Virus genome (UHGV): UHGV-1550212
Strand: one strand, 5' to 3'
Length of the DNA: 64,000 nucleotides
Source of the DNA: a virus
The position numbers and the translations under genes are program-made. The notes beneath the pieces were generated by a model. That model did no database searches and had not been told where the DNA came from. It saw nothing but the letters and a program-made list of their open reading frames with translations. Positions 10,096 to 56,967 of the stretch are shown here, piece after piece; position 1 is the first letter of the stretch; every line of letters begins with the position of its first letter.

Positions 10096-11601
10096 TTACA
10101 ATTTGATTGCGCCTCTACGAGCAAGCTCTTCTTCAATCAATCGAACATGATTGTTAGCATACCAAAATTGCAATTTTTTGTGATAATTGCGAACGTTGCC
10201 AAGCTGTTCTTGAGTTTCTTTATACATTGAAGGCTCTCTGTTGTCATACAGACAATTGTTGACTGACACAAAGTAATTTGGGTCTGCTTTGTAATGCTCA
10301 ATTTCATCAGGATTTGTTAAACGTCTAATAAAGTTGTCTGGTGAAATATTCGCCGAGCGCATACTTGACGGATACAATGAGTTTGCGTCAACACAGACAA
10401 CCATACGAGCCCAATGGTTAAATGGTTGCTTAACAAAGCCGCCCTCAAATGAATGTACTACATTCTCTGGGCCACCTTGAGCACATACAACTTTGCCGCC
10501 ATATTTGTTGTATAAGTATGTCATCATGACGCCCTCAGATTGCTTAACTGGTCCTTGGCAGTGATTCATGTCAATATTTGTCATATTTGACAATGACATC
10601 ACATTTGATATCAAGTCAGTTTTTGCAGCAATCATTGCATTGACCATAGTATCGACAGCATTGTATGCAATGAATGTGCATGGATGATACAAATACAGCT
10701 CTTTAAGTGTGCAATCATAGGGCAACTTACCTACGCCGAACATACGATGTGCAATGTAGTCAAGTCGCAATGATTCCTTTTGCCACACTGAATAGTCGTA
10801 TGTGTCCATGAGCTGCATGTAGTCATCAATGTACTTGTGATATGGCATACCATTGCCCCAGACAGTTCTGCCAACTGGAGATGCCAATGCTAAATCAATA
10901 TTGTGCATTGCGCATCGATTTTTGACATAGATGTTATCGAAGTCATTGATGTTCCAGCCTGTCAATGCAGGAATGTTTTTGAAGAGCTTAGTCACCCAAA
11001 AATGCAACAATTCATGCTCATTTGCATGTTGAAAAATTTTGACAGTTGGATGTTCTTTCAAATACGCAGCAAAGCAATGTTGACCCATATACTCTTGAAT
11101 GATGCCATTGACAAACTCAAATGCATCATCCAATGTTGGGTTTTGTTTGCCGCAGCTTTTGCGCAAATCATCATCATTCAACAAGTCAACAGTAGTCTGA
11201 ATGACACAATTGCATTGTTCATCGCATGTACTTATTGCATTAATGGGCATTTCAGCTTTGTCAGGCTTTGGAAAGCCATTGCCAATTTCAGTCTCAATAT
11301 CGTAAAAGTACAACTTTGGTCTACGATAAGCAAACAATTCAGCTTTGTCAGCTTCAGGCAATTCAAATAAGAATTGCAGCAAGTCAAATTGATTGAATCG
11401 TTTTGCTGTGACTCGAGTCACTGGCAATTTACGCCAATCTTGAATATCTGCATATTGAGGCTCTACGTGGTCTGATATTTGCCACACTGGAAATTGATAT
11501 GGCTGTTCACAGACTGGGTATGTTTTGATGTCAATGCCACCTTGCTCATTAACATATGAGACTTCAATGCCATGTGACAAATATGCTACGTCAACAATCA
11601 T
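10096..11601 (-). CDS. family B DNA polymerase, N-terminal part (3'-5' exonuclease domain and motif A)
   Basis: Exo I FYDIETE, Exo II NINDFD, Exo III YNAVDT, polymerase motif A DANSLYPS; stops ~100 aa after motif A; own promoter at 11630-11658. Confidence 0.85.
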   Translation of the reverse strand: MIVDVAYLSHGIEVSYVNEQGGIDIKTYPVCEQPYQFPVWQISDHVEPQYADIQDWRKLPVTRVTAKRFNQFDLLQFLFELPEADKAELFAYRRPKLYFYDIETEIGNGFPKPDKAEMPINAISTCDEQCNCVIQTTVDLLNDDDLRKSCGKQNPTLDDAFEFVNGIIQEYMGQHCFAAYLKEHPTVKIFQHANEHELLHFWVTKLFKNIPALTGWNINDFDNIYVKNRCAMHNIDLALASPVGRTVWGNGMPYHKYIDDYMQLMDTYDYSVWQKESLRLDYIAHRMFGVGKLPYDCTLKELYLYHPCTFIAYNAVDTMVNAMIAAKTDLISNVMSLSNMTNIDMNHCQGPVKQSEGVMMTYLYNKYGGKVVCAQGGPENVVHSFEGGFVKQPFNHWARMVVCVDANSLYPSSMRSANISPDNFIRRLTNPDEIEHYKADPNYFVSVNNCLYDNREPSMYKETQEQLGNVRNYHKKLQFWYANNHVRLIEEELARRGAIKL

Positions 11602-29155: not shown

Positions 29156-30214
29156 TTACTGCTTCAAGCCTGTGAACAGTTCATACTTGAATGCAGGCCC
29201 TGCTGTGTAAGCCTCAAAGTAGAAGTCACCAATATTGATGCTTGCAATAGCGTCATCGACAGCTTTCTTGTAGCCTACACGTTCAATTGTCTGCTTATCG
29301 CATTTACGCCAATATGTGCTGTGCATCATAAGCGTGGGTGATGCAGCATAGTCTACTGCAAGCTGTTGTTTTGCAGTGTCAATGTGATGTTCATAGATGT
29401 GCACATCATTGCCAGTCCAAATGAACTCTCTTGCCACACAGTTAGTCAATGTTGCAACAATATGTGTAAGCAATGCATATGATGCGATATTGATGGGCAC
29501 ACCAAGACACATGTCACAGCTACGCTGAGTAAGCGCACAGTCAAGCCACATGCTTGGTACTTGAGCAGAATCAAGGCATTCTGCAGAACCATCATGCACA
29601 AGCATGCTATCATTAGCAATCTGAATTCGTTCTTCAAGAGTCATTGGCTGACAATTGAACTGAAACAGCATATGACATGGCGGCAATGCCATCTGAGACA
29701 TTTGCGCAGGATTCCATGCAGACACGACTTTGTAGCGGCCAGTTGGATTGATGACAATGTCTTTAATGCAAGTTGCAAGTTGGTCAAATCCACTGTCATT
29801 GAAGTTGCGCCACTGATACCCATAGATAGGTCCGCAATCACCATACTCAGGTTTGCTGAATTTTGTGTTGTGCAGTTCTGTGCACCAAGTGTCAAAGTCG
29901 ACATCTTCACCTGGATGCAGCTTTTGCCAATGACGATATGCATCCTGATGCCAGAACTTTGTAATGCCAAGCGTGTCAAGCGTTTTGACATTAGTGTCAC
30001 CTGACATAAACCACAGAAGTTCTCCAATGACGCCTTTGACAAACATTCTCTTGGATGTCAACAGTGGAAAGCCTTTACGCAAATCAAATCGCATTGATTC
30101 TACAAACAATGACTTTGTGCGAGGCATGTTTTCACGAGCAGGTTCCTTAAATCTGCCATGCTCAATAACATTATTAAGTACTCTCAAGTACTCAGTGTCG
30201 TGTTTGATATTCAT
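29156..30214 (-). CDS. thyA: thymidylate synthase (ThyA family, dUMP-specific type)
   Basis: ThyA blocks GELLWFMSGDTN, GPIYGYQWR, SAWNPAQMSQMALPPCH, QRSCDMCLGVPINIASYALL (Asn retained), WTGNDVHIY; ~60-aa C-terminal extension. Confidence 0.85.
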   Translation of the reverse strand: MNIKHDTEYLRVLNNVIEHGRFKEPARENMPRTKSLFVESMRFDLRKGFPLLTSKRMFVKGVIGELLWFMSGDTNVKTLDTLGITKFWHQDAYRHWQKLHPGEDVDFDTWCTELHNTKFSKPEYGDCGPIYGYQWRNFNDSGFDQLATCIKDIVINPTGRYKVVSAWNPAQMSQMALPPCHMLFQFNCQPMTLEERIQIANDSMLVHDGSAECLDSAQVPSMWLDCALTQRSCDMCLGVPINIASYALLTHIVATLTNCVAREFIWTGNDVHIYEHHIDTAKQQLAVDYAASPTLMMHSTYWRKCDKQTIERVGYKKAVDDAIASINIGDFYFEAYTAGPAFKYELFTGLKQ

Positions 30215-35803: not shown

Positions 35804-38800
35804 TTAACAAATTGATGATGTGCCATCAGTGTTTGCTACAACTGTCAATGCGCTATCAAACTCATCTTGCTGTAACACATGGTCAACTATGAGTGTTTTG
35901 CGAATTGCAGAAAGCTTAGTAAGCAACTGCATCAACACTTGCTGATAATTGATGGTGTTGACGTCATGCTCAGCGCCAACAATCTGCCCGTTGCTAAGCT
36001 TGCCGCTAATTTCATCAATGAGCAAGATGTTGCCAACTTTGTTTAAGCGTTGAGTCAAAATGAGATGCACGATTGCAAGACCTGCGAAAGTCCCTTCCAT
36101 ACCAGACATTTGACTTACACTTCGAATTGACTTCGAGCCCATCAAGTCAATCATCTTTAGCACATTGTTGTCATTGATGTCAAAGAACACTCGGTAGTTC
36201 AATGAATCAAGCAAATCATTGAGCTGTGCATTCAGTGATGTTGCAATTGCTGCAAAGACATATGAAACTAAGCCTCGTTTGCTTGTGCACTGCTTATATG
36301 CATTGTACACCAAGTTTGCAATGTTCCACTTTTTCGAAGCTTGCAAATCTTTCTTGAGAGCTTCAATTCGCACATTGTTTGCTGACAAGTCTGCTTGCAT
36401 TGTTGCAATTTCTGCATTGATGCTTAGCAGTTTTGAGTTTGCTTCAGTTTCATGCTGCTTAGCATCATCAATGTCGACTTGCAATGCAGCGTTTGCCACA
36501 ATATGCTGCTGAGTTTGCTGTGCATGTTCAAGTGCAAATGCTGCAGCAGTCTTGTCAATCTCAAGTTGTTTAAGAGTAGACTCATATGATGCTTTCTTAT
36601 CATATTCTGCTTGAGCAATTTCAAGTTCAGCATTTATTGCAGCCAGTTCTGATTCTACTGCAGATTTTGATTGCAATACATCTTGCTTTGCTTGTTCAGC
36701 TTTACGTTTGATGTCTGCAAGTTGATTTGTGATATCTGCAATTTGCGTTTTGACTGCTTCAACTTCAAGCAATGTTGCTGCAGTAGCCATTGGCTGTGCA
36801 ATGAATGCATCCAAGTCTCTTTGCGCATTGACTACAGTTCTTTGCAAGTCATTAAGCTTTTCTGCATGCATATCATATGCAGCTTTATGTGCTGTATTCA
36901 GTGCAGCAATTATTGCATTTGAATCTGTGACATCAATGATTGCTGCTTGCAATTGCTCAATCTCATACTTCAAATTGCCAATTTTGACAACATTCTCATT
37001 GAATTGCTCTGTCTTTTGCGCGTATTCTTGACGCAACTTAGCAAGCTCAGTTGACAACCACAGCTTGTATGCTTGCCCTGTGCCAGATGTCAAATCATTT
37101 GTGCACACAGGACATTTATCATTTTCAAGTTGCTTTTGCTTGTCTATAACATTGTCGATGTTTGTTTTTGCAGCAGATACTTCTGTTCTAAGTGCATTTT
37201 GAACAGTGTTGATGTCTTCAATTTGCTTTTGCAAAGCATCTATTTTTGCCCGAGTGTCTGCATTATATGACTTGCCAAGATTTACCAGCACAGAATCAAT
37301 GCGCTGCTTTGCTGCATCATATGCAAGCTTTGATTCATCAAGCTTTGTTCTGTACAATGATTCTGCATGCGCAACTTCTTTCTGCACTTTTGCAGATAGC
37401 TCATTCTGTTTTGTAAGCAGCTCAGCATATGTATTGTGCAGCTGTGAGCCAGATGCTATGACATTTGTGTATGCTGCATTAGCTTCATTGTCAATATTAG
37501 TGAGTTGTTGCTCAATCTGCGCTTTTACTGTTTGCAATTTAGACATGTCTTGCAATGCAAGTGCAGCAATGTCAAGCTCAACTTTGCGAATCTTTGCAAC
37601 GATGCTATCGACATTTGCTGTTGCATCTTCTACAGTTAAAATATCTGCAGGAATTTGATGCAGTCTTTTTGAGAGCTCTTCTACTTTTGCACGTGCTTTT
37701 GTAAGTTTTGCAGACCATTCCCTTTGATTATCTTGTCGTAACTGCAAAGAGTCATTGAGTTCATTGCAAGTTGTATTGAGAGACTCAAGTTCTGCTTTTA
37801 TTGCGACATCAGTCAATGCGGGCTTACTAAGGCCATCAAACAATGCGGCCTTTGCAGCATCATTAGAATTGCCCAGTTGCACGAATGTGTTGATGCCAAG
37901 AGTATCAAGCAACCAGTCATTCAATGAATTTGAATCCATTGCAATGATTTGGTCAAGTAATGTCTGATTGATGCAGACATATCGCGACAATTCCCAGATA
38001 GAACCAAAGATTGCGTATAGCGTGTCTTTGATTTCATGCTGTGGCACTACGTAGTCATCTGACAATCTTACAAGCTGCACAGTCTCATTGACTGCTGACA
38101 CGTTATCTCGCCATGAGCCATCTGCATTTATTCGAGAGCCCCGTTTGAATCTACGTTCAAGTGTTCGAGTTAATTTGTAGTGAACATTTTGACCAGCTAC
38201 TACATGTACAAATACACAAGATGCTTCAAGCTTATCATATGACTCATTGTCAATCAATTTGTCATTGAAGTATGTCAAAGCGTTCTGCTTTGTTGCTGCA
38301 GAAGACTGTCCAGCGTCAATAAAGCCAGTCAGCAGCCATTTAATGAGTCTGAAGATTGTTGTTTTGCCATTGCCGTTGTTGCCTCTAACTTGTGTAAGCT
38401 GTGCAAGATTGTCAAAGCTGACATCGACATCTTTCAATGCCATGAACTGATTTGCTTTGACATTTTGAATGACGTATTTTGCAACTTCAGTGTCAAAAGA
38501 CAATTTATCAATTTGCTCATCAATCAATGACTTGAACATGTCAACAAACTGCTGAGCGTCTTCAGTAGCAACTATAGCATTGCGTTCAATGTACGCATTG
38601 ACCCAGTCAAGTGCAGCATCTTTAAGCCATTCAGCAGTTTGAACTTTTTGCAGCAAATTGTCGCCATTTGCATCTACAGCATTGATTGAATCAATGACAG
38701 CAGAATCATACAGAATGTCAATTGCGGCAACAACGTATGAACTTACAAGATTCTGTGCAATGCGCTCAACAATGCCAGACAGTTCGGGCTTTGTGACCTT

Positions 38801-39730
38801 TGACTTGATTTTGATTTTGTTGATGCGACCAGGATTGATGAGTGCAATCTTATCTGTTTTGATGTCATTGTCAATTGTGATTGTATGATAATGCACAAGC
38901 TGCTCAAGCGAATGCCACTCTACTACAATTCGCTTGTTGTCAATATCGATGTCAAGCAAGTTGTAGCCATGTTCTGCAGTGCCCTGTTGCGTTGCAGTGT
39001 CATTCAACAAATAGTCGCCTTCACCAAAATCTCTGACAATTGGCGAGCCGCAGTATGTCAATGTCTTGGTGCCAGAAGTCCATATTGCATGTTTGTGAAT
39101 ATCACCCATTGCAACAAAGTTGCTGTGAAACTGTGTTGCATCTATACGACTGTCATTGTCACCACGAACAATGCAGTCATCAAAGTTGACGCAATTCTTT
39201 ACAGGGTCATGGAACAGCTCAATAACACACATTGATGACAATGCAGCAATCTGCGATTCGTCAAGTGATGCCCAAGGCGAATATGTGCCACCAGACCACT
39301 TCTCATTTTGAGCCCATACTGCAGCAGCAAAACCAGGTGCAAGCAGTTCAACTCTTGAACTGTTGATATACTTGATTCGCTTGTCATCAATTGCAGTTAC
39401 AAGCTTGTCAATGCTATCTGTCCACTGCATTTGTGAACCATCACCAGCATCAAATGTGTTATCACGTTGCTTCAAATCATGATTGCCAGCAGTAATGACA
39501 ATTTGAAGCTTGTCATTGACTTCAAGCATGCCTTTGAGCAGCTTAACAAACAGCGACTCTTCAAGTGAATTGCTGTTCCACTGCTCAAACACATCGCCAA
39601 CAATAAACACAAACTCAACCGACTTTGCTTTGTCAATTAGTTGTTTGTTGATGTGCTCATATTCTACGAAACGTCGTAAATGCCCTTGTCGAACATTATA
39701 TTGAATGTCTGCTATGTGAAGTGCTTTCAT
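35804..39730 (-). CDS. fused SbcD-SbcC (Mre11-Rad50-like) nuclease/ATPase
   Basis: N-terminal calcineurin-like phosphoesterase motifs (HIADIQ, IVGDVFE, TAGNHD, GDIHKH); Walker A GNNGNGKTT; long coiled coil with CPVC zinc hook; C-terminal LLIDE Walker B. Confidence 0.8.
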   Translation of the reverse strand: MKALHIADIQYNVRQGHLRRFVEYEHINKQLIDKAKSVEFVFIVGDVFEQWNSNSLEESLFVKLLKGMLEVNDKLQIVITAGNHDLKQRDNTFDAGDGSQMQWTDSIDKLVTAIDDKRIKYINSSRVELLAPGFAAAVWAQNEKWSGGTYSPWASLDESQIAALSSMCVIELFHDPVKNCVNFDDCIVRGDNDSRIDATQFHSNFVAMGDIHKHAIWTSGTKTLTYCGSPIVRDFGEGDYLLNDTATQQGTAEHGYNLLDIDIDNKRIVVEWHSLEQLVHYHTITIDNDIKTDKIALINPGRINKIKIKSKVTKPELSGIVERIAQNLVSSYVVAAIDILYDSAVIDSINAVDANGDNLLQKVQTAEWLKDAALDWVNAYIERNAIVATEDAQQFVDMFKSLIDEQIDKLSFDTEVAKYVIQNVKANQFMALKDVDVSFDNLAQLTQVRGNNGNGKTTIFRLIKWLLTGFIDAGQSSAATKQNALTYFNDKLIDNESYDKLEASCVFVHVVAGQNVHYKLTRTLERRFKRGSRINADGSWRDNVSAVNETVQLVRLSDDYVVPQHEIKDTLYAIFGSIWELSRYVCINQTLLDQIIAMDSNSLNDWLLDTLGINTFVQLGNSNDAAKAALFDGLSKPALTDVAIKAELESLNTTCNELNDSLQLRQDNQREWSAKLTKARAKVEELSKRLHQIPADILTVEDATANVDSIVAKIRKVELDIAALALQDMSKLQTVKAQIEQQLTNIDNEANAAYTNVIASGSQLHNTYAELLTKQNELSAKVQKEVAHAESLYRTKLDESKLAYDAAKQRIDSVLVNLGKSYNADTRAKIDALQKQIEDINTVQNALRTEVSAAKTNIDNVIDKQKQLENDKCPVCTNDLTSGTGQAYKLWLSTELAKLRQEYAQKTEQFNENVVKIGNLKYEIEQLQAAIIDVTDSNAIIAALNTAHKAAYDMHAEKLNDLQRTVVNAQRDLDAFIAQPMATAATLLEVEAVKTQIADITNQLADIKRKAEQAKQDVLQSKSAVESELAAINAELEIAQAEYDKKASYESTLKQLEIDKTAAAFALEHAQQTQQHIVANAALQVDIDDAKQHETEANSKLLSINAEIATMQADLSANNVRIEALKKDLQASKKWNIANLVYNAYKQCTSKRGLVSYVFAAIATSLNAQLNDLLDSLNYRVFFDINDNNVLKMIDLMGSKSIRSVSQMSGMEGTFAGLAIVHLILTQRLNKVGNILLIDEISGKLSNGQIVGAEHDVNTINYQQVLMQLLTKLSAIRKTLIVDHVLQQDEFDSALTVVANTDGTSSIC

Positions 39731-40155: not shown

Positions 40156-41390
40156 GACTTTATGTACAATTCTGCAAGTTGTCTGGTGTACAGTCGTGGA
40201 TTATGATATGCTTTCCAATACGCAGTAGACTTTATTGCAGCAAGAATTTCATCATAATGTTTGACTGCTTCTGCTACAACTTCATCAAGCACGCTCAAAT
40301 CTTCTACACTGACAAGCAACCATTTTTCTACAATATCAATGAACTCCTGATTGCAATTGAAGCCATACTTGTAGTTGCAAGTATCAAGTACAAGTGGAAT
40401 GCAATCATTTGTCAATGCTTCAAAAAATCTACGAAGACTGAAACAATTCTCATCATATGATGGAATGCTCAATGTAAACTTGGCAGTCTTGATGAGTTGC
40501 AAATACTCTTCGTATGGAATCAGAGGACCATTGTGCTTCCATTGATTATTGTGTCGTCTTGTCGTGTACTTGAACAAAAACTTTGAATTGTCAAGTTCAC
40601 AAAGATGGTCCATGCGTAAAATGTAGTTATAGCGGTCTCTTCTGTCAGGCCAACTGTCAGTCATCGCAAACACAAAGTCTCTTTGCTTGTCACATTTTGC
40701 TGACATACCTCTATGCTGACACATGCAATACCAATATTGCTGCGATGGGCTGAACTCAAACTTTGAATGATGCTCACTTCCATCTTTGCATTGCTGAACA
40801 TAAATGTTGTCAGGCACAAAGTGAAAATAAAAGTGTCGAATTTGCAAGTCATTGATGTAGTCAAGCTTATGCTGCAATGGGTCTTCACAGAAATTGTAAC
40901 ACTGAATATGCTTTGCTGCTGCGTACTCAGCAACTATGAACGTGCACATCCATTGCAATGCAATATCTTCACTCTTCAAAAAGTTTACAAGCGGCTCATT
41001 TGGATGCGCTTTGCATTCATTGAACATTTTGTACCACTTGCATTGCTCCATATCGTACTTTGATACTGTATTGCCATTAAAGAACGACACAGTGTCAATT
41101 TTGAATGCATCAAGTTGTTTATGCACAATGTCAAGTGCTTGTGCGTATGTGATTGTCTCATCAGACATTATCTGCGCAAACTTGATTGGATGCGCATGCA
41201 AATTTGCGATAGTGTCTGCCGACATTTTACGCTGTGTGTGATAATCGACATACAAAAACTGACACTTGTCTGTAAGCAATTCAAGCATTGCTACAGATTT
41301 CCATCGAATTGCTTGAAAGAAATTGAAGTGTGCAGTTTGAAAGATGAGATGCGTAGGTTTATCAGAATGAGTCAAAGTTTGCATGGACAA
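40152..41390 (-). CDS. putative glycosyltransferase-like protein (cassette copy A1)
   Basis: Paralog of 44432..45988 (shared EDPLQHKL, PSQQYWY, FTLSIPSYDENCFSLRRFFEAL...CIPLV); the last block resembles a GT-B C-terminal motif. Confidence 0.4.
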   Translation of the reverse strand: MSMQTLTHSDKPTHLIFQTAHFNFFQAIRWKSVAMLELLTDKCQFLYVDYHTQRKMSADTIANLHAHPIKFAQIMSDETITYAQALDIVHKQLDAFKIDTVSFFNGNTVSKYDMEQCKWYKMFNECKAHPNEPLVNFLKSEDIALQWMCTFIVAEYAAAKHIQCYNFCEDPLQHKLDYINDLQIRHFYFHFVPDNIYVQQCKDGSEHHSKFEFSPSQQYWYCMCQHRGMSAKCDKQRDFVFAMTDSWPDRRDRYNYILRMDHLCELDNSKFLFKYTTRRHNNQWKHNGPLIPYEEYLQLIKTAKFTLSIPSYDENCFSLRRFFEALTNDCIPLVLDTCNYKYGFNCNQEFIDIVEKWLLVSVEDLSVLDEVVAEAVKHYDEILAAIKSTAYWKAYHNPRLYTRQLAELYIKS

Positions 41391-42547
41391 ATGTCGCAGT
41401 TATGTTGATGTTTGTGTTTATTTATGAAGTCATATGTCACTGCAAAAAAGTGCTTTGCAATGTCATATCGAGTTTTCAAATATGCTGCTTGGCGTTCACA
41501 AAACGCTGCATAAATGTCTGGGTGTCGTTTGAATGCAGCAATGCGTTGCTGTACTTGTTCTGCAGAATGTACATATGACACTTTGCTCAAATATGCATCA
41601 TCTGCAAATAATCGTCTGTCTTTGTCAACTGCGCAATCAACAAAAGTTGCAATTCGTGCAACAATGGCTTCACCAACACGATTTGGCATCAACCCATATT
41701 GCTCATATTGTTGGTCACCGATAGCAATGTGCGCTGCTGCATATGACATTGCATATGGCACACTATAAAATGGCACACTAAAATCAAATGAGCAATTTGA
41801 CTGTAGTAGTTGCGTTTGTGCATCAGACAATCTACTTGTCAAGTTGCCTGTATGTTTGTGCTCACCAAGAAAACTTGAGCGACAACCTGAATCTACATAG
41901 TATCGAATGACTTTGTTTATGCGACTGTCAGATAGCATATGCCAATCTCTTGTAGCATATATCAAGTCTACTGTTTTTGCACCAATATGACGAGGCTCTA
42001 TCGCAACATTGCTGTATGTTGGCAGCATGAACAATGGCAGCCATTTGACATTGTTGAACACTGAATGTTCATTTGACAAATTCATGCACTGGCTAAGTTC
42101 AAGTACTGGCTCATCATACACGCCATGCAGTTCAACTCTGCCTGCATGCACAAAGTTGACACGCTTAAATGGAAATCGCATATCAGTGCAAACCGTCATT
42201 CTTGCTGCAGTAGACATTCGCCACATAGCATGCAGCTTAACAACTGCTTCGGCTTGAGGTCGAGGCAGCATATTTAGCAAATCAATCCAGCCACCCCACA
42301 AAATCCAAACATCATTTGAACAGATGTTGAATTGCAAACTCAATATGTCTTCTACTGTTGCAGCAATGATGTCATGCCCATTGATGCTTGCAAGGTGCTT
42401 TCGTTGATTTGCAATAAGAATGACTTGACTGAACGGAGACTCTGGAAATGACACAAGCGCCTTTGCAAACAACACGGGTTCTTGTGATACCAAGTTGTTT
42501 GAGTATGGGTCGATTATGCAATCAAGCTTGTGTATGAAAAGTCTCAT
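41372..42547 (-). CDS. hypothetical enzyme-like protein (cassette copy B1)
   Basis: Paralog of 45985..47151 (shared N-terminus LFI.K.D, TDxRF.F, L.PNR). Confidence 0.45.
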   Translation of the reverse strand: MRLFIHKLDCIIDPYSNNLVSQEPVLFAKALVSFPESPFSQVILIANQRKHLASINGHDIIAATVEDILSLQFNICSNDVWILWGGWIDLLNMLPRPQAEAVVKLHAMWRMSTAARMTVCTDMRFPFKRVNFVHAGRVELHGVYDEPVLELSQCMNLSNEHSVFNNVKWLPLFMLPTYSNVAIEPRHIGAKTVDLIYATRDWHMLSDSRINKVIRYYVDSGCRSSFLGEHKHTGNLTSRLSDAQTQLLQSNCSFDFSVPFYSVPYAMSYAAAHIAIGDQQYEQYGLMPNRVGEAIVARIATFVDCAVDKDRRLFADDAYLSKVSYVHSAEQVQQRIAAFKRHPDIYAAFCERQAAYLKTRYDIAKHFFAVTYDFINKHKHQHNCDICPCKL

Positions 42548-44411: not shown

Positions 44412-44440
44412 ACAGTACAACGTAGTTATGCTCATTGCAC
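44412..44440 (-). promoter_or_regulatory. weak sigma70-like promoter (GTGCAA-N17-TACTGT)
   Basis: Upstream of the dNMP kinase gene; -10 is a poor match. Confidence 0.3.
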
Positions 44441-45988
44441 TTCTACGAATGGCTCTTTCAACACAAAGCTGTCACCATTGCAACATGCGGCTGAGCCATC
44501 GTCTGCATCAAGTGCACATGACATATCAGACTTGCAGAACTTGCAATATAAACATGACCATGCATGACTCATGAAGTTGTTTGCTTCACAAATTGCGCAA
44601 CGCTCATGCATAAGTGCATTGTCGCAATTATCACAAGACTTCTTGATTGGCACAGTTTTGTTGATGTATGCAAGATGCAATGCAATATCATACACAAAGT
44701 CACCCGTATATTGCTGAATGAAATCAGTATGCCACAACTCTTTTAACAATTGTGCATGTCTATATGGCTGAACAATGTCTTCAAGATGCTGCAAGTCATC
44801 ATCGCTAACCATGAGCTTCTTAATGACAAATTGTTTGAACTGTGGCCATCTGTCAAACATATAGAGTTTGCATGAGTTGTGCACAAGTGGAACACAGCCA
44901 AGCACAATGCTTTCACAGAATCTACGCAAACTAAAACAGTTTGCATCATATGACGGCACAATCAATGTGAATCTGCTATGCTTGATGAGTTCAAGGTATG
45001 TGTCATATGGCAGTAGCTTATCTGACAATTGCTGTTGTTGTTTGTCTCTGCTGAAAAATCTGAACACAATACCCTTGTCAATTGCATCTTGATTGTGCAG
45101 ATGCATGAGTTTGTTGATGAGTTCTGTGCGTTCAGTTTTGTCTCGCCAAGTATTCGTCAATGCAAATGCAAAATTCAGTCGCTTGTCATCAAACGTCGCT
45201 TCAATATCATTCCAAGTTTTGTCATGCAAATACCAGTATTGCTGTGATGGGCACCATCCATAATATGCAATAGCATCTTGTTCTGCTGTAACGTCATACA
45301 CATATGCAGAATTGTATTCAAGGCCAAGCCTTTTGACGTTGTTGCAGTCATGAAAGTACCAATGCTGCACTTTGAATATCTTTGATGCACTGAATGCGCT
45401 TTCATATGGCCCTGAATAGCGATAGTCAATGTAATTGAGCTTGTGCTGCAATGGGTCTTCGACAAAGTTGTTTATGACTGTGCCTTGTTGTTTGCCCTTA
45501 GTCTTGCGAGCATTCAATGCAACATTGTATTGCATGATGACTGACAGCATCTCATACACTACATACATGAGTGCTTTGTAGACTGAGCCTGCTGCGTCAA
45601 TTAGTGGCAAATCACGTTTGACTGATGTAGCGCCAAATGTCTTGCAATATGCAGAAAATGTGTCAAGTTCTGCTTGCTGAAATGAATTGCATGCACCATT
45701 GAATATGTTGAATGTTGCAATGTAGCTCATATTGCAAGATGTCATTGACATATCAAGACGCTTCATAATGTCGACAATGCGACATTGAGCAAAATCTGAC
45801 ACATCAACATATTTGACATGATGGCCTGATGTAGTCAAGCCATCTGCGACATCTTTCATCTGTGGCACAAAGCCTACAACAATGAATAAGTCATCTTTGT
45901 TTGCTCGTTCAAACATTGCTGCACTTTTCCAAGTCAATGAATTGAAAAAGTCTATGTAGCCAGTTTGAGTGATTATATGCGTTCTCAT
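44432..45988 (-). CDS. putative glycosyltransferase-like protein (cassette copy A2) with Cys-rich C-terminal extension
   Basis: Paralog of 40152..41390 (EDPLQHKLNY, PSQQYWY, FTLIVPSYDANCFSLRRFCESIVLGCVPLV); extra CDNCDN...C cluster. Confidence 0.4.
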   Translation of the reverse strand: MRTHIITQTGYIDFFNSLTWKSAAMFERANKDDLFIVVGFVPQMKDVADGLTTSGHHVKYVDVSDFAQCRIVDIMKRLDMSMTSCNMSYIATFNIFNGACNSFQQAELDTFSAYCKTFGATSVKRDLPLIDAAGSVYKALMYVVYEMLSVIMQYNVALNARKTKGKQQGTVINNFVEDPLQHKLNYIDYRYSGPYESAFSASKIFKVQHWYFHDCNNVKRLGLEYNSAYVYDVTAEQDAIAYYGWCPSQQYWYLHDKTWNDIEATFDDKRLNFAFALTNTWRDKTERTELINKLMHLHNQDAIDKGIVFRFFSRDKQQQQLSDKLLPYDTYLELIKHSRFTLIVPSYDANCFSLRRFCESIVLGCVPLVHNSCKLYMFDRWPQFKQFVIKKLMVSDDDLQHLEDIVQPYRHAQLLKELWHTDFIQQYTGDFVYDIALHLAYINKTVPIKKSCDNCDNALMHERCAICEANNFMSHAWSCLYCKFCKSDMSCALDADDGSAACCNGDSFVLKEPFVEVQ

Positions 45989-47151
45989 GATTTGAATGTT
46001 TGTTCAAGAATTGTATAGCACTGTGCAATCATTGTTGCAAGAGCTTTTTGCTGAAGCTGTTTGCAATTTGAAGATATTGTGTATTGCTGACGCTCAGTTG
46101 TAGTACTGCTTAATGTCGCAAATTGCAGGTACTCATCTTCTGACATGATATCAGCAAACAATGCAGACAATTCATAATCTACAATGACATTTGAGCAGTT
46201 TGCAAGTACGCCTTCAACCCATCGATTTGGCAACAAACATGCTTGCACATACAATGAATCGCCGACTACAAGATTGCACATTGACTGCGACATTACATAC
46301 GTCATCATGTCATATGGCACTTTGTACTTAAGTGTGAAGTTTTGTGCTGCTGACTTAATTGCTTGCAGAATTGTGTCATCAAGATATGATGTTATAAGGC
46401 AAGTATTGTATGCCTGCATAATGTAACGCTCAATCACGCTTCTACGATACTCGTCAAGATATGTGAAACCTGCACAACTTGCACAACATGCATATTGCTG
46501 CTTTATGTCAGCAAAGCTACACACATGCGCTTCAATTGCATTTTGCATTGTTGCTTGTCGTTTGAGCAATCTTGGCTCTTTAATGCATTGAAGCTTCAAT
46601 GCATTGACTGCTGCAATGATTTGCAATGGCACAAACACGCATTGAGACTCATCAAGCCAAGCATACTTGAGATTTTTATGTTGACACAGATGCGTAATGT
46701 TGTCTTTTTGTGATTCTAAGTACTCTTTGTAATTATGCAATCGCTTTGTCAATGTGCACTCTTTGTCAAAATCAAATCGCAAATCAGTTGTTAGTGTAAA
46801 TTTGCGAACATTTGACAAGCACCATGCTTTGAATGCATTCCACAGAACATCTTGCTGAAATTCTGAACAATGTTCAAGAGCAGCCTTTGAGCCCTGCCAG
46901 AATATTGCGCAATCATCTGATTTTGCACACTTCAGCATATCTTGCCATGCATGTATGCTATTGATGATATGCACTTTATTATGCACAAGCTCATTAAGTG
47001 TTGCATGCTTGTTCTCAGGGTCGCCAAACACGTATACTGTATCAAACATTGTTTGAACAAACCCTGCAAATGCAATGGGTTCTGTATGTTTAAGATGCTG
47101 TATGTCTGAACGCACACATGTGTCAAATTTCAAAATGAAGAGTTTGCTCAT
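45985..47151 (-). CDS. hypothetical enzyme-like protein (cassette copy B2)
   Basis: Paralog of 41372..42547; promoter at 47181-47210. Confidence 0.45.
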   Translation of the reverse strand: MSKLFILKFDTCVRSDIQHLKHTEPIAFAGFVQTMFDTVYVFGDPENKHATLNELVHNKVHIINSIHAWQDMLKCAKSDDCAIFWQGSKAALEHCSEFQQDVLWNAFKAWCLSNVRKFTLTTDLRFDFDKECTLTKRLHNYKEYLESQKDNITHLCQHKNLKYAWLDESQCVFVPLQIIAAVNALKLQCIKEPRLLKRQATMQNAIEAHVCSFADIKQQYACCASCAGFTYLDEYRRSVIERYIMQAYNTCLITSYLDDTILQAIKSAAQNFTLKYKVPYDMMTYVMSQSMCNLVVGDSLYVQACLLPNRWVEGVLANCSNVIVDYELSALFADIMSEDEYLQFATLSSTTTERQQYTISSNCKQLQQKALATMIAQCYTILEQTFKS

Positions 47152-47848
47152 ATGCTTTGCAATTATCTATTACATGTTGATATTGTACTTCATCTATGAT
47201 GTGATTTGCAATGACACCATATGACGTGTCATACATTGGCATCTTCTCATATGACAATGCTGCGTCAAGATTGCATATCACATAATTGCAATGCACAATG
47301 TCATCTACATTGTCACTAACTGCTACGATATTGACGCAATTTGCAAGAAATGCATCATCAAAGTCTACTTGATTGCATGCAACCTCATAATCTGCAGCAC
47401 TTCTTGGGTACCAATATAACTCAATGCCGGCACTACTAAGTAGTCGCAAGCCATCTATGTGATGATACAAGTCAACAAAATGCACTTGCTTAACGCCTGC
47501 TTGCAAAATAAGCTTTGCGCAATCAATGCATGGACTATATGTTACATATAGCACTGCGTCATTTGCAGTCGCATTGCCATATTTGCACAGCTTCATCAAT
47601 GCATTTGATTCTGCATGCAAAACTTCTTTGTTGGTTTTGATGCCTGCTGATGTTGCATGTTCACAACAATTTGACATGCCAGTTGGCATGCCATTGTAGC
47701 CATCTGAAATTATGCAGCCATCTTTTACAAGCAATGCGCCGACTTTTGCTCGCTGAGCATGTGAATTTAATGACCAGAGCTCAGCCATTTTAAGATATAT
47801 GAGATTTCGTTGAAACCACTTTGTTTCAGACCAAGTTAGCCATTTCAT
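47123..47848 (-). CDS. dCMP deaminase (zinc-dependent cytidine/deoxycytidylate deaminase family)
   Basis: HAESNAL and YSPCIDCAKLI zinc-binding motifs; ~90-aa C-terminal extension. Confidence 0.8.
   Translation of the reverse strand: MKWLTWSETKWFQRNLIYLKMAELWSLNSHAQRAKVGALLVKDGCIISDGYNGMPTGMSNCCEHATSAGIKTNKEVLHAESNALMKLCKYGNATANDAVLYVTYSPCIDCAKLILQAGVKQVHFVDLYHHIDGLRLLSSAGIELYWYPRSAADYEVACNQVDFDDAFLANCVNIVAVSDNVDDIVHCNYVICNLDAALSYEKMPMYDTSYGVIANHIIDEVQYQHVIDNCKAYEQTLHFEI
47181..47210 (-). promoter_or_regulatory. sigma70-like promoter (TTGCAA-N18-TACAAT)
   Basis: Upstream of 45985..47151, inside the 3' end of the dCMP deaminase gene. Confidence 0.45.
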
Positions 47849-49455: not shown

Positions 49456-50001
49456 TTAATTTGCGTCTGCTTCCTGCAATTCAGCTTCAGCAGTCTTTTC
49501 AGCAAGTTCGGCTTGCTTACGCTTGTCGATTTCCTGCAAACATGCGTCAAGTGCAGTGGCGTTTTCACGATACTGCTCATCGAACTTCTGTACTTCTGCT
49601 GCAGGTGCCTCAAGCAGATTGTTGAGTGAATCAAGTGCTGCAGCAACCTGAGCACCCTTGAACTTCGTCGTCGATACAGCACGAACAATGTACTTGAACT
49701 CGAAGATGCCCATGGTGCTTCGTCCTTTTGCAGCGCCCGTAGCCCATGCAGCAAATGCGACAACATCACGCATAAGTTGCATATCAAACTCAAGCTGCGG
49801 CAAAACAAGTTCGCACACATTACGTGCAACAGACTTGAGCAATTCGCCATCAGTCGTGACAATCATCTGCATTGACTGCGATTTGTCTTCGAGTTCTTTT
49901 CGAGCTTCACTGAGCGACTTTTTGAGTGCTTCCAGTTGCTCCATTGTCATGTCTTTGAGTTCAGTTGCAGGCTTTGCTGCAACAGCATTTTTCTTTGCCA
50001 T
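49456..50001 (-). CDS. hypothetical Lys/Ala/Glu-rich protein
   Basis: Start set to ATG at 50001 (MAKKNAVAAKP...); coiled-coil-like; locally GC-richer coding sequence. Confidence 0.45.
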   Translation of the reverse strand: MAKKNAVAAKPATELKDMTMEQLEALKKSLSEARKELEDKSQSMQMIVTTDGELLKSVARNVCELVLPQLEFDMQLMRDVVAFAAWATGAAKGRSTMGIFEFKYIVRAVSTTKFKGAQVAAALDSLNNLLEAPAAEVQKFDEQYRENATALDACLQEIDKRKQAELAEKTAEAELQEADAN

Positions 50002-52878: not shown

Positions 52879-54474
52879 TCAAAGCTTGAATTTTTGCACT
52901 TTTGCATCTACTGGCATCTTTTCAGCGTCATAGATTCGTTTTCGAGCAGCAAAGTGTTGCATGTCATAATTGCAGTAGCAATAGCCTTTGCGAAGCTTGA
53001 CAAGCATATCACTGTGAATTGTAAGCTTATGTGCAATATCAATAATGATTGCTTTCTGCTTAAGTGGATGCTTACGCAACAGTCGCCCAATTGACTGCAA
53101 TGTTACGTTGTCAGATTTGCCAATCATCAAGAATGCAGCATAAAACCAAGCATGCACAGATACGCCTGTAGATAATGTACCAGTTGTTGCAATCATGATG
53201 TGTCTGTCAGGCTCTGCTTCCATCATTGCAAGCATGTCTTTGCGTTCATGCAAGGGTACATCACCTCTAATGATGTGAACAACCTTGTCAACACCAGACT
53301 GCTGTATGAATGTTTGACAAGCATCATAGATGTTCTGCACATGGTCTCGTCGTTTGCAAAGTACAAGAGCATTTTTGTCAAGCGAACAAATGATTTTTGC
53401 AATGAGCTTGTTAGCATCGACATAGTTCATGCAATGATGTTGTTCTGCTGGAAGCAGTCTTGCAGTGTTATCAAACACTTCAGGATGCTCTTCAAGATAC
53501 TGCACAAATGGCGCATCATATTCTGCTGAATGCTCAATGACTACTCGTTTGATTTCAAAGTCAGACACAATGTTCTTTTCAAGTGCTTGAGCTACGCCAA
53601 ATGTGCCCAATATTGGCCCAATGTATGATTCAATTGTCAAACGAGCTGCAGTATGCTCAAGTGGCAATGAACCAGACACTCCAAGACGATAATGAGCTTT
53701 TGTGCAATGACTGAAGATTTCACGAATTGATGCTGCAGGTGCACCATGAGCTTCATCAGTTACAATGAAGTCAAACTGTTCGAAAAAGTCTGCTGGCATA
53801 TTGACAAGACTTTGATATGTGCCGACAACCATATCTGCATCTTGCATCTTGTACTCATTGCGAACACCTGAATGGATTTTGTAGAGTTTGTAATTCTTGT
53901 TTGCTAAATCTGACTCATTTTGTTGATAGCTGACAACAATATCGTCAAACGCTTGTGACACGAGATGCACCGAGGGCACAATCATAAGTGTTTTGCCATT
54001 GATTCTCTTGCTGTCTTTTAAGAAGCGACTAATTACATAAACAAGAGCTGTTTTGCCATAAGAAGTCGCAAGGCGCAAACAACATTTCTTGAATTTGCAA
54101 GCAGTCAAAATGAATTTGAGCTGGTCATCACGCATGTCAAATGGCATATCAAGACATTCTGACCATTGCTCAAGCTCTTCAAGTGACACAATGCGGTCAA
54201 AGTTGTCAATGAGGCCCTCAATCTTGACTTCATATGGAATTGGCTTACGCAATTGTAGGTCCCAGATACGCTTCCATAAGCCAAATGGCAGGTATACGCC
54301 ATTGAACACATAGCAAATTTGCCCATTCCAATCTGTTTTGCGTCCTTTGCGCTTATTGACTGCTGCTGCAACAAAGTTTGGCACTTCTGCAGTAGCTTCA
54401 GCATACAATTGCTTGACTTCCAAATCATTTGCTTCGACAATCTGAAGCAAATCGCCTATGACTTTAAGTCTCAT
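52879..54474 (-). CDS. SF2 DEAH-box helicase (UvsW-like)
   Basis: Motif I LATSYGKTA, motif II IVTDEAHGA, motif VI QSIGRLLR; start trimmed to the ATG at 54474 downstream of the terminator hairpin at 54491-54528. Confidence 0.75.
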   Translation of the reverse strand: MRLKVIGDLLQIVEANDLEVKQLYAEATAEVPNFVAAAVNKRKGRKTDWNGQICYVFNGVYLPFGLWKRIWDLQLRKPIPYEVKIEGLIDNFDRIVSLEELEQWSECLDMPFDMRDDQLKFILTACKFKKCCLRLATSYGKTALVYVISRFLKDSKRINGKTLMIVPSVHLVSQAFDDIVVSYQQNESDLANKNYKLYKIHSGVRNEYKMQDADMVVGTYQSLVNMPADFFEQFDFIVTDEAHGAPAASIREIFSHCTKAHYRLGVSGSLPLEHTAARLTIESYIGPILGTFGVAQALEKNIVSDFEIKRVVIEHSAEYDAPFVQYLEEHPEVFDNTARLLPAEQHHCMNYVDANKLIAKIICSLDKNALVLCKRRDHVQNIYDACQTFIQQSGVDKVVHIIRGDVPLHERKDMLAMMEAEPDRHIMIATTGTLSTGVSVHAWFYAAFLMIGKSDNVTLQSIGRLLRKHPLKQKAIIIDIAHKLTIHSDMLVKLRKGYCYCNYDMQHFAARKRIYDAEKMPVDAKVQKFKL

Positions 54475-54490
54475 GACATGACTTGTTATG

Positions 54491-54528
54491 AAAAAGAGGC
54501 TCAGACAGACATTGTTTGTCTGAGCCTC
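54491..54528 (-). terminator. intrinsic terminator
   Basis: 11-bp stem GAGGCTCAGAC/GTCTGAGCCTC, U5 on the minus strand; downstream of 54554..55684. Confidence 0.6.
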
Positions 54529-54553
54529 GAGCATCTTTGATGCGTTTGTGCTA

Positions 54554-55684
54554 CTACTTGAGCCCGTTGATGAATGCTTCAGTTTCAGCATCCATCGTTG
54601 CTGCTGCAGGTGCTGCTGCCGGAGCTGCTGCAGGTGCAGGTTCTGGTGCAGGCGCTAAAGCTGCTGCAAACGGGTCAATGGCTGTCTGAGCTGCTGGTGC
54701 AGTAGCAGGCGCAGCTGCCTGAGCTGTTGCAGGTGCAGGCTGAGTAGTCTGTGCCTGCTGAGCTGCTGACGAATTGATGACAATGTCAGGCCAGATATCC
54801 GACACATCCTTGTAGTTAGCAAGGCGCATCTTAACCTGACGCTTGATGTCATCAGAAGCTTCGTGGTAGCCCCACTCCTTTTCGACATTCGGGTACTCCT
54901 TGAGCATGTCGACAATCTGCTGCATAATTTGCTGCTTGTATGCAGGGTCAGTGTCATACTTCGCCTGGTCAACAAGCGTGCCATCTGCAAGCAGCATCGA
55001 CGATACGTTGGGCGAAATCGTCGAAGTCTCGTAGTCACGCATTTCAACGCCATTGACGTCTTTCAGCGTAATCTTCAAGAGAATGTCGTGGCCCTTAACG
55101 GGATGGAACATGTCCATAGGCTGAGCACCCATCTGGATGTCTTCGTCGGTAGGCTTCATTGCAGACATGCAACGCTTGTAGATGGCTGCAGGGAGTCGAT
55201 ATGGGAGTACTTTCCCAACGTTCTCAGGGTGCACTGAATCAGCCTTGATTTGCACGAGGCAAGTGTACTGACTCTGCATGCTGAACTCTCGCTTTGCAAG
55301 CGCTTCCTGCTGAGCATCCTTGGTATTGATGAGTTCCCAGTAGAATGCCGAAATGGGACACCATCCATAGGGCTTCATCAAATTTTCAGGATTTTCAGGA
55401 TGCGGATTCGGCGAGCTCGGCGAATTGTAGCGGAAGCCCTGATTAGCGCCAGTGCCAAACCAGTAGTAACGGACGATTGAAATCGGCACCGCGGGGTCAT
55501 TCAAGTTCGGCAGAATTCGAATGACTGCTCGATAGATTCGGTCCTTACTTTCGGAAGGCTTAGGATTAAAAAACTCAGGTCCTGCAGAACGTTCCGGCTT
55601 AGCAAAGCTTGCTACATTGTCCGGCTGGACATCAAAGATTGACAGCGGCTGATTACCGGTCTGCCCATTTTCAATTTGTGACAT
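54554..55684 (-). CDS. hypothetical protein with Ala/Pro-rich low-complexity C-terminal region
   Basis: 376 aa; visibly GC-richer codon usage than neighbours; C-terminal (AP/AAP)n linker then a short conserved-looking tip; possible abundant DNA-binding protein. Confidence 0.5.
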   Translation of the reverse strand: MSQIENGQTGNQPLSIFDVQPDNVASFAKPERSAGPEFFNPKPSESKDRIYRAVIRILPNLNDPAVPISIVRYYWFGTGANQGFRYNSPSSPNPHPENPENLMKPYGWCPISAFYWELINTKDAQQEALAKREFSMQSQYTCLVQIKADSVHPENVGKVLPYRLPAAIYKRCMSAMKPTDEDIQMGAQPMDMFHPVKGHDILLKITLKDVNGVEMRDYETSTISPNVSSMLLADGTLVDQAKYDTDPAYKQQIMQQIVDMLKEYPNVEKEWGYHEASDDIKRQVKMRLANYKDVSDIWPDIVINSSAAQQAQTTQPAPATAQAAAPATAPAAQTAIDPFAAALAPAPEPAPAAAPAAAPAAATMDAETEAFINGLK

Positions 55685-55771
55685 CGCAATAAAATTTTAG
55701 AAAGTTTAACAAAAAGTTTGAAATGAACTCTTCAGAAAAGCTTCAGAAGTTTATTTGTTATTTGTATATGT

Positions 55772-55800
55772 ATTGTATAACATGCAAAGTACTTTTGCAC
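55772..55800 (-). promoter_or_regulatory. sigma70-like promoter (GTGCAA-N17-TACAAT)
   Basis: Upstream of 54554..55684 with ~87-nt leader. Confidence 0.5.
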
Positions 55801-56967
55801 TTATCTTGCATGACCACAGTCATCTGCAAGCAGTTTAGCATGACCGCAGTCATATACTGCAACATAACCGACGTCAATCATCTCTTGTTCATCTTGACCG
55901 ATATCTTCAATATGTTCTTTTGTCTTCAAATGACACCAGTGCTTATGAATGGTTGACTTGTCATCTGACAACTGCGGGTTGAGCGCGAAGTCAGCTGAGT
56001 CTACTTGTTCACCTGCAAGATGCTTTCTAATGGCGTCAATGACTTCGTTGTCATCCATCCATTCGAATATTGTAATGCAAGTGTAGCCATGCTTAAGAGC
56101 AAGTTGAGTTTTGTCGAAGTGGTAGAATTTGCCAACTGGCTTATTGTGTTTTGTGCGCCCAGTTAAATATGCAAAGCCATATGTTGCATTGTGTGACCAA
56201 AGAGGATTAACTTCAATCAAAAGTTTGCAGTATTCATTACAATAGTCAAGGTCATATGACCATCGCCCAAGATTGACATTATCAAGCCCGCAATCAATAC
56301 CAAGTTCTTGCAGCAATTTGTCGTGCCACCAATGGTTTGCTCGTGATTTTACATGACCTTGAGCATCACGGCATTTAGTAGTCATACAAAACCATGGCAC
56401 ACCATGTCGTTCCATATTGACTTCTTGAACGCGTTCAAGATTGCCGCTCTTATTGCCATAACGTTGCTGTTTTGTTTGCAATGCAGCATCAATATTGCCC
56501 CATGCATTGCCATATCGTTTTACAACAGTTTGTTTGCGTTTTTCAACATCACAGCACTTATTGCCATATTTACGCAATTTAGTGTCAAATGCTTTTTGTG
56601 TATTGCCTATGCCACGTTTGCCCCATTTGCGCTCTTTGCCTTGTTGACATCGTTCTTGGTCACCCCATGTGCTGCCATATCGTTCTAAATTTGTTTGTCT
56701 ACGTTTTTCAACATTGCCTGCTTTGCATCCATGTCGTGCTAAATTTGTTTGTTGTTGTTTAGCTACGCAATCTTTGTTACGTGCAGGAAATTCAACGCCT
56801 AATGAACGTAGACAGCCAATTCTACGATTATAATTACGTTTAATATTGCCGTGTGATGTTTTACAAGGCCCATATCTTACAAACTCAGTTGTTCTCAACA
56901 ACTCATCTCGCTCTTGCTCAAGCTCTGCAATGCGCTTCTCAAGAGCTTCACCAGTTAGTGGCGTCAT
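55801..56967 (-). CDS. tandem-repeat protein (RYG/KYG units) with C-terminal nuclease-like domain; paralog of 1777..2976
   Basis: Same architecture: LTGEALEKRIAELEQERDELL coiled coil, repeats (ARHGCKAG, ERYGSTWG, KYGNKCC, RYGNAWG, RYGNKSG), C-terminal LLIEVNP...H. Confidence 0.55.
   Translation of the reverse strand: MTPLTGEALEKRIAELEQERDELLRTTEFVRYGPCKTSHGNIKRNYNRRIGCLRSLGVEFPARNKDCVAKQQQTNLARHGCKAGNVEKRRQTNLERYGSTWGDQERCQQGKERKWGKRGIGNTQKAFDTKLRKYGNKCCDVEKRKQTVVKRYGNAWGNIDAALQTKQQRYGNKSGNLERVQEVNMERHGVPWFCMTTKCRDAQGHVKSRANHWWHDKLLQELGIDCGLDNVNLGRWSYDLDYCNEYCKLLIEVNPLWSHNATYGFAYLTGRTKHNKPVGKFYHFDKTQLALKHGYTCITIFEWMDDNEVIDAIRKHLAGEQVDSADFALNPQLSDDKSTIHKHWCHLKTKEHIEDIGQDEQEMIDVGYVAVYDCGHAKLLADDCGHAR

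Follow-up and report, generated by a model that had tools for sequence, protein, structure and literature searches.

The 64,000-nucleotide stretch of virus genome UHGV-1550212 analysed here (hereafter the window) carries on its minus strand a gene for a single-stranded DNA-binding protein (SSB) of the gp32 family. The protein consists of an N-terminal segment, an oligonucleotide/oligosaccharide-binding (OB) fold core with a helical subdomain, an Ala/Pro/Gln-rich linker and a short C-terminal tip (Table 1). An A+T-rich leader and a homing-endonuclease-like gene precede the coding sequence, which is followed by an intrinsic terminator and a gene for a UvsW-type helicase. The practical outcome is one of annotation: the gene encodes the gp32-type SSB of a large uncultured phage, an ordinary member of a known family. 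Two open reading frames (ORFs) on the plus strand, 54516..54689 and 54863..55237, are regarded as antisense artefacts, as no homology supports them and the conserved coding sequence encloses both completely.

Table 1 Features of the SSB locus and of the second GC-rich gene (GC, guanine plus cytosine; GC3, GC at third codon positions; pLDDT, predicted local distance difference test score).
Feature	Position	Strand	Remarks
gp32-family SSB coding sequence	54554..55684	-	376 aa + stop
N-terminal segment, aa 1-50	55535..55684	-	conserved; candidate cooperativity segment
OB-fold core and helical subdomain, aa 51-300	54785..55534	-	pLDDT 87-98; GC3-rich codons
Disordered Ala/Pro/Gln linker, aa 301-362	54599..54784	-	40/62 A or P; net charge -2
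Short linear motif IDPF within the linker, aa 336-339	54668..54679	-	conserved in homologues
C-terminal tip TMDAETEAFINGLK, aa 363-376	54557..54598	-	predicted amphipathic helix
SSB leader, 116 nt, A+T-rich	55685..55800	-	two copies of TTCTGAAG
Intrinsic terminator	54491..54528	-	12-bp G+C-rich stem and two more pairs, then U5; 26 nt past the SSB stop
UvsW-type superfamily 2 (SF2) helicase, 531 aa	52879..54474	-	downstream of SSB; PDB 2oca (T4 UvsW), 6.6e-32
Homing-endonuclease-like protein, 388 aa	55801..56967	-	PHROG 3339, 2.7e-9; weakly DUF7487
Ala-rich, all-helical protein, 181 aa	49456..50001	-	GC 0.473; SSB-like codon style

Pfam, PHROG, the T4 gp32 structures and the AlphaFold2/Foldseek comparison all identify the protein as a gp32-family SSB, in agreement with an initial annotation, made from the sequence alone, that had proposed a DNA-binding protein. 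The match to the Pfam gp32 family (PF08804) has E = 6.6e-17 and a score of 62.7 bits, where the gathering threshold is 26.8, and covers profile positions 5-205 of 208; PHROG 224 (single strand DNA binding protein) matches at 2.2e-18. In a phmmer search of PDB sequences, the T4 gp32 core (1GPC, 1.3e-8) and RB69 gp32 (2.7e-6) are the only significant matches, the sole other row having E = 2.5. NCBIfam yields no family for the SSB, the 181-amino-acid protein or the homing-endonuclease-like protein. Fold prediction, which the initial annotation had suggested for the N-terminal domain, returned a gp32-type OB fold: the AlphaFold2 model, based on 76 homologues, has a mean pLDDT of 83.9, with residues 41-300 mostly above 90. 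When compared with the PDB by Foldseek, its top six matches are gp32 chains (E = 8e-13 to 7e-10), and the next, non-gp32 match has E = 0.24. Chains 2a1k_A, 1gpc and 8gme_A are found at E = 8e-13 to 1e-10 with probability 1.00 and template modelling (TM) scores of 0.66-0.71, normalised by target length, with 2a1k and 1gpc at about 1e-12 and TM 0.70-0.71. Among viral predicted structures, the best matches are annotated SSBs, that of Tenacibaculum phage PTm1 coming first (1.8e-22).

The likeness to T4 and RB69 gp32 (PF08804; 1GPC, 2A1K, 8GME) extends from the OB-fold core to the division into N-terminal peptide, core and disordered C-terminal tail, at an identity of about 19-27%. Aromatic DNA-contact residues are shared as well. 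Five of the six T4 positions that contact single-stranded DNA (ssDNA) (Y84, Y115, Y137, R138, F183 and Y186) are kept as Y106, Y140, Y162, R163 and Y218, while F183 is replaced by M215. In the N-terminal segment, the motif PLSIFDV.P...SF.KP......FF.PKP is nearly invariant among nine homologues; residues 1-30 are of low confidence in the AlphaFold2 model (pLDDT 47-58, disordered).

The C-terminal region supports the flexible linker and interaction tail that had been proposed for this protein. The Ala/Pro content of the linker compares with a background of 11.5% (binomial P ~6e-23), and the most Ala and Pro found in any other 62-residue window, among 29 other proteins, is 16. Residues 313-362 are predicted to be disordered (pLDDT 42-52 for residues 311-360), as are the C-terminal 75 residues with the exception of the terminal helix. 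The nine homologues, which are 52-94% identical, differ in the length and the sequence of their linkers. Two islands are fixed: [IV][DN]PF[AK] and, close to the C terminus, T..AF[IV].G[LMI]. The first contains the IDPF motif, whose Pro and Phe are invariant (9/9) and whose position 337 is Asp in seven homologues and Asn in two (INPF, in P0003 and P0009). The number of DPF copies in relatives ranges from one to three, and P0012 has four copies of NPFG. In a MAFFT alignment of 153 sequences including T4 gp32, IDPF falls on T4 L262-D263-A264-F265. In the complex of the gp32 peptide with the Dda helicase, L262 and F265 make the hydrophobic contacts; the extreme acidic end of T4 gp32 is thought to serve DNA-binding autoregulation (PMC11551737). 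From this alignment we infer that IDPF is equivalent to the T4 LDAF segment.

The second island belongs to the C-terminal tip, which the initial annotation had described as a conserved-looking terminal peptide and which is indeed kept in the nine homologues. AlphaFold2 places a helix at residues 365-374, with block means of pLDDT of 66 (residues 361-370) and 79 (residues 371-375). The protein ends in ETEAFINGLK, and in the 153-sequence alignment ETEAFINGL is paired with the terminal DLDDLLNDL of T4 gp32. Scored as acidic-x-acidic-x-hydrophobic-hydrophobic-x-x-hydrophobic within the last 16 residues, the tip motif occurs in 76 of 151 family representatives, T4 gp32 itself matching, compared to 1.9 in shuffled tails (a 40-fold enrichment) and 1 in an internal tail window. 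A tip of the form [DE]x[DE]x-hydrophobic-hydrophobic-NxL at the very end, with a hydrophobic-D-x-F motif upstream of it, is thus common to this protein and T4 and RB69 gp32, and its conserved tip is, by sequence comparison, probably the ancestral gp32 tip. Both tail peptides of T4 gp32 seem to persist here as short motifs despite a wholly changed linker chemistry, which supports the view of SSB tails as a tether plus docking motifs.

The gene had also been described as GC-richer than its neighbours, with a windowed GC and codon calculation as the proposed check; both its GC content and its synonymous codon choice turned out to be outlying. With a GC content of 0.515, it is the maximum among 67 non-overlapping ORFs of at least 80 amino acids in the window, about 4.3 standard deviations over their mean (0.407, standard deviation 0.025). 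In 200-nt windows, GC ranges from 0.49 to 0.60 within the gene and from 0.34 to 0.44 on either flank. This excess has two independent causes. In the codons for residues 1-290, GC3 is 0.58 (0.58-0.64 for residues 51-290) against a window mean of 0.376, while GC at second positions (GC2) is an ordinary 0.37; the excess of the core is therefore synonymous. In the codons for residues 291-376, GC at first positions (GC1) is 0.71, GC2 is 0.64 and GC3 is 0.35, and the excess stems from the Ala (GCN) and Pro (CCN) codons. The GCTGCTGCAGGTGC runs noted initially belong to this amino-acid-driven part, and Tandem Repeats Finder reports 3.2 copies of a 12-nt unit, TGCTGCTGCAGG, at 54599..54637.

The core prefers AAG, CAG, TAC, GAC, CTC and NCG/NCC codons and avoids NCA, AAA and CAA. 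Compared with the rest of the window, the codon fractions of the gene are 0.89 against 0.42 for AAG, 0.83 against 0.36 for CAG and 0.71 against 0.37 for TAC, whereas ACA is absent (0 against 0.54) and CCA is rare (0.04 against 0.55). Per codon, the chi-square of the gene is the highest in the window. The window contains no tRNA genes, so phage tRNAs within it cannot explain this bias. Five related contigs were recovered (labels L001 to L006 are used for relatives), with background GC of 0.33 to 0.41. No other called gene in any of the five is as GC-rich as the SSB gene, which favours the same codons throughout, and in the related contigs the GC3 of its core exceeds that of all neighbours apart from one short gene in L004. 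When comparing the codon-deviation vector of the gene with those of orthologues 52-72% identical to it, we observed Spearman correlations of 0.42-0.78; the corresponding values for the adjoining helicase gene are about zero (-0.29 to 0.06). A deviation common to orthologues whose synonymous sites are saturated argues for continuing selection rather than recent import. The core codon pattern is that of a very highly expressed gene, and we infer abundance of the protein from this bias together with the dedicated terminator. Codon usage that is outlying in a gene and in its divergent orthologues alike is a cheap marker for those early genes of uncultured phages that are expressed most highly, and here it also flags the 181-amino-acid protein.

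The terminator has a predicted folding energy of -27.9 kcal/mol (z = -5.6), and none of 200 shuffled sequences folds as well. Its 12-bp stem encloses a 9-nt loop; the rule of the promoter/terminator scan (loop of 8 nt or less) passed over this hairpin, which direct folding detected. L001, L003-L006 and Chryseobacterium phage MA9V-2 have a hairpin of unrelated sequence at the same position; a U-rich stretch comes after it, and in most of them this is a clean U-run. In L002, the hairpin is less clear (region z = -1.07), with no clean U-run after it. Gene 32 of T4 and RB69 likewise has its own terminator. With its own leader and a strong terminator, the SSB gene appears as an insulated unit, consistent with high, separately controlled expression.

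In the leader, the two copies of TTCTGAAG (55730..55737 and 55741..55748, minus strand) lie 11 nt apart, and the sequence has no other occurrence in the 64 kb. L001 and L003 have kept this block, L005 a part of it, and the pair may be a gene-specific operator. Its restriction to this leader led us to reject TTCTGAAG as a general phage promoter motif. In T4, gp32 represses its own translation through a leader pseudoknot together with an unstructured UUAAA-rich tract. The present leader does not exceed shuffled sequences in structure (z = +0.64), and UUAAA and UAAAA each occur in it once. Rfam, scanned with 54300..56100, gave no family match, the two sub-threshold matches (sok and sR30) being attributed to chance. 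A leader pseudoknot operator like that of T4 is therefore not supported and was not detected here, and a scan for sigma-70 promoters gave unconvincing matches at 9 of 12 positions at best. A palindrome, GUGCAAAAGUACUUUGCAU (55781..55799, minus strand), lies directly past the stop codon of the homing-endonuclease-like gene at a position conserved in L001 and L003 (TGCAAA...TTTGCA); it could form a small terminator or processing hairpin at the 5' edge of the leader.

The adjacency of SSB and helicase genes is kept in L001, L002, L004, L005 and MA9V-2; in T4, by comparison, the neighbour of gene 32 is gene 59. The 570-amino-acid ORF listed at 52879..54591 extends across the SSB stop codon and takes in the terminator of that gene. 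Since the L001 orthologue has 531 amino acids and the terminator lies inside the longer ORF, the helicase most likely starts at 54474, after the terminator, and the annotation should be trimmed to the 531-amino-acid UvsW-type helicase. The T4 gp32 tail is needed for interaction with UvsW, gp59 and gp41 (PMC10391720), and by analogy the UvsW-type helicase is a likely client of the SSB tail.

As a whole, the locus is best explained as a highly expressed gene for a gp32-family SSB that acts in replication and recombination and carries docking peptides tethered on its tail, a reading to which we assign a probability of roughly 85%. We postulate that the OB-fold core would coat ssDNA, as its homology and conserved aromatic contacts suggest, and that the conserved N-terminal peptide probably mediates cooperativity between neighbouring molecules. 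The uncharged Ala/Pro/Gln linker would act as a flexible tether that presents IDPF and the acidic-amphipathic helix ETEAFINGL at the C terminus as two docking peptides. If they work as in T4 gp32, they would recruit helicases such as the adjoining UvsW homologue and other replisome proteins, and the terminal helix may also fold back onto the DNA-binding groove. Synonymous sites of the core would be under selection, as in a very highly expressed gene.

Several observations weigh against this reading. The T4 zinc ligands H64, C77, C87 and C90 align with Y74, S88, C109 and S112, so that only one of four is kept, and the phmmer pairwise alignment also retains C87 alone. The three lost ligands are replaced by Tyr, Ser and Ser, and a Pro-rich insert of 20 residues, SPSSPNPHPENPENLMKPYGW, fills the zinc-finger region; H95, C142, H152 and H194 would be candidate residues for an alternative metal site. 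The LAST motif of the basic N-terminal B-domain mediates gp32 cooperativity, and here the basic motif, (K/R)3(S/T)2, KRKST in T4, is absent: the N terminus reads MSQIENGQTGNQPLSIFDVQPDNVASFAK, with no Lys or Arg before residue 29. With the zinc ligands and the LAST motif gone, core stability and cooperativity may be unlike those of T4. The almost uncharged Ala/Pro/Gln-rich linker contrasts with the Ser/Asp-rich, strongly acidic one of T4, the net charge being -4 over the last 76 residues here and -11 over the last 51 residues of T4 gp32; with so much less acidic a tail, the T4 model of autoinhibition may not be transferable. The pairing of IDPF with LDAF is an alignment of motifs in low-complexity sequence, which is weak evidence. 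The codon preference was measured relative to the genes of the window alone, and the SSB genes of MA9V-2 (GC3 0.273 against about 0.30) and of a T4-like phage have little or no GC3 excess; the strong codon bias is clade-specific and not general to gp32. Finally, DNA identity to L001, which is 0.95-0.97 in the downstream genes, declines to 0.91 across the SSB core and 0.87 across the leader and reaches 0.78 in the homing-endonuclease-like gene, and local recombination near the latter may well occur, yet it leaves the bias in L003 and in an unlinked gene unexplained.

The missing features characterise the T4 protein rather than the whole Pfam family, of which this SSB is a divergent member. The full HCCC zinc pattern is present in three of the 153 aligned sequences, one of them T4 gp32 itself; all close homologues have a Y-S/T-C-S pattern at these positions, and the loss of the three ligands is likewise seen in most of the 153 representatives. 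A site treated as a hallmark of gp32 is thus gone in most representatives closest to this SSB, its own clade included.

A more far-reaching joint reading would make this clade a zinc-independent gp32 variant, in which the Pro-rich insert stands in for the zinc-finger subdomain and the acidic A-domain has turned into an uncharged Ala/Pro/Gln tether with one to four [DN]PF[AGK] docking peptides besides the ancestral helix. DPF would imitate the tip of host SSB (D-[IL]-P-F) and so attract clients of that SSB to phage ssDNA, TTCTGAAG would be a new gene-32 operator, and the 181-amino-acid protein would be a second abundant replication protein. We consider this combination doubtful. The homotetrameric bacterial SSB does work alike, with an OB-fold binder, a low-complexity disordered linker that contains proline (Pro/Gly/Gln-rich in bacterial SSB) and a short acidic Phe docking peptide, and the D-P-F core found here resembles its D-[IL]-P-F (DDDIPF tip). 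The two proteins are, however, not homologous: the core fold is gp32-type and monomeric, and the bacterial SSB family PF00436 gives no match at E <= 0.1. SSB-tip pockets recognise the free terminal carboxylate of bacterial SSB, whereas DPF is internal here (residues 337-339) and the protein ends in ...INGLK, so that the motif offers no such carboxylate. Mimicry of the bacterial SSB tip by DPF in the window protein was accordingly rated unlikely.

Less likely still is a foreign origin of the gene, whereby the SSB gene would have been acquired or recombined recently from a GC-richer phage, perhaps through co-conversion by the adjoining homing-endonuclease-like gene. In favour of this, no gene of the window deviates more strongly in composition and codon usage than the SSB gene, DNA identity to L001 declines as given above, and the homing-endonuclease-like gene is inserted directly upstream. 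In L003 it is missing at that position, and the orthologue of the preceding 251-amino-acid gene directly abuts the SSB gene, which identifies the endonuclease-like gene, whose product has repeated '(R/K)YG..WG' units, as an insertion between the two. T4 offers a parallel in its free-standing segG, which lies just upstream of gene 32 and co-transfers it (PMC535899). However, GC3 and codon usage are shifted in the same direction in orthologues of 52-72% identity and differing background GC, including L003 without the endonuclease-like gene, and at such divergence amelioration should have removed the traces of one old transfer. Moreover, the GC3 of the SSB tail is typical of the genome, the SSB-UvsW synteny is ancestral, and the codon style recurs in 49456..50001, a gene 5 kb away and unlinked to it. 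That the GC excess is a mere by-product of Ala/Pro-rich composition, uninformative on expression or origin, is very improbable: it holds for the last 86 codons, where the noted repeats encode (A/P)n and GC3 is low, but is refuted for the core, whose 290 folded residues combine an ordinary GC2 with synonymous choices sharply unlike those of the window.

A megablast search with 10 kb around the gene gave no match among 50,697 phage records, and the phage thus has no close cultured relative. The closest cultured relatives are phages of Flavobacteriia (Chryseobacterium MA9V-1/2, Tenacibaculum PTm1 and pT24), with 31% tblastn identity over 76% of the protein. Their SSBs also have an A/P/Q/V-rich linker and a hydrophobic tip, and MA9V-2 likewise has the helicase gene next to the SSB gene, with a terminator following the latter. 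The MA9V-2 SSB, judged from its own sequence, which lies outside the 153-sequence alignment, has retained CPVS without the T4 His/Cys ligand context. Unlike the window protein, it has no DPF motif in its tail, and its gene does not share the GC3 excess of the window gene.

The gene at 49456..50001, initially noted as similar in composition, is the only other gene of the window with SSB-like codon choice, which corroborates that remark. Its codon log-likelihood ratio is +0.147 per codon, four standard deviations above the window mean (-0.335, standard deviation 0.116). A search of 5.8 billion proteins returned two homologues only, and the AlphaFold2 model has a pLDDT of 71.6. No Pfam, PHROG or NCBIfam family, PDB sequence or Foldseek fold matches the protein, which is probably another highly expressed one.

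A Shine-Dalgarno-like motif is found upstream of two of 63 genes in the window, and the upstream regions are A-rich. This scarcity, together with the relatedness to Chryseobacterium and Tenacibaculum phages, suggests a host that makes no use of Shine-Dalgarno sites, possibly one of the Bacteroidota. Elsewhere in the window, the family-B DNA polymerase is apparently split between the minus-strand ORFs 6510..7802 and 10096..11601, a 501-amino-acid ORF corresponding to the N-terminal and a 430-amino-acid ORF to the C-terminal part of PHROG 262; the halves lie about 2.3 kb apart, with four small ORFs between them. A cluster of minus-strand genes (29156..30214, 41372..42547, 44432..45988 and 47123..47848) hints at DNA base modification, as it comprises a thymidylate-synthase-family enzyme, a beta-glucosyltransferase-like protein, an Exostosin/GT47-like protein (a weak match, through the L001 orthologue) and, by synteny with L001, a dCMP-deaminase-family protein. 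Finally, 35804..39730 (minus strand) encodes a fusion-like protein of 1308 amino acids, with an SbcD-like metallophosphoesterase at its N terminus and an SbcC-like C-terminal part.

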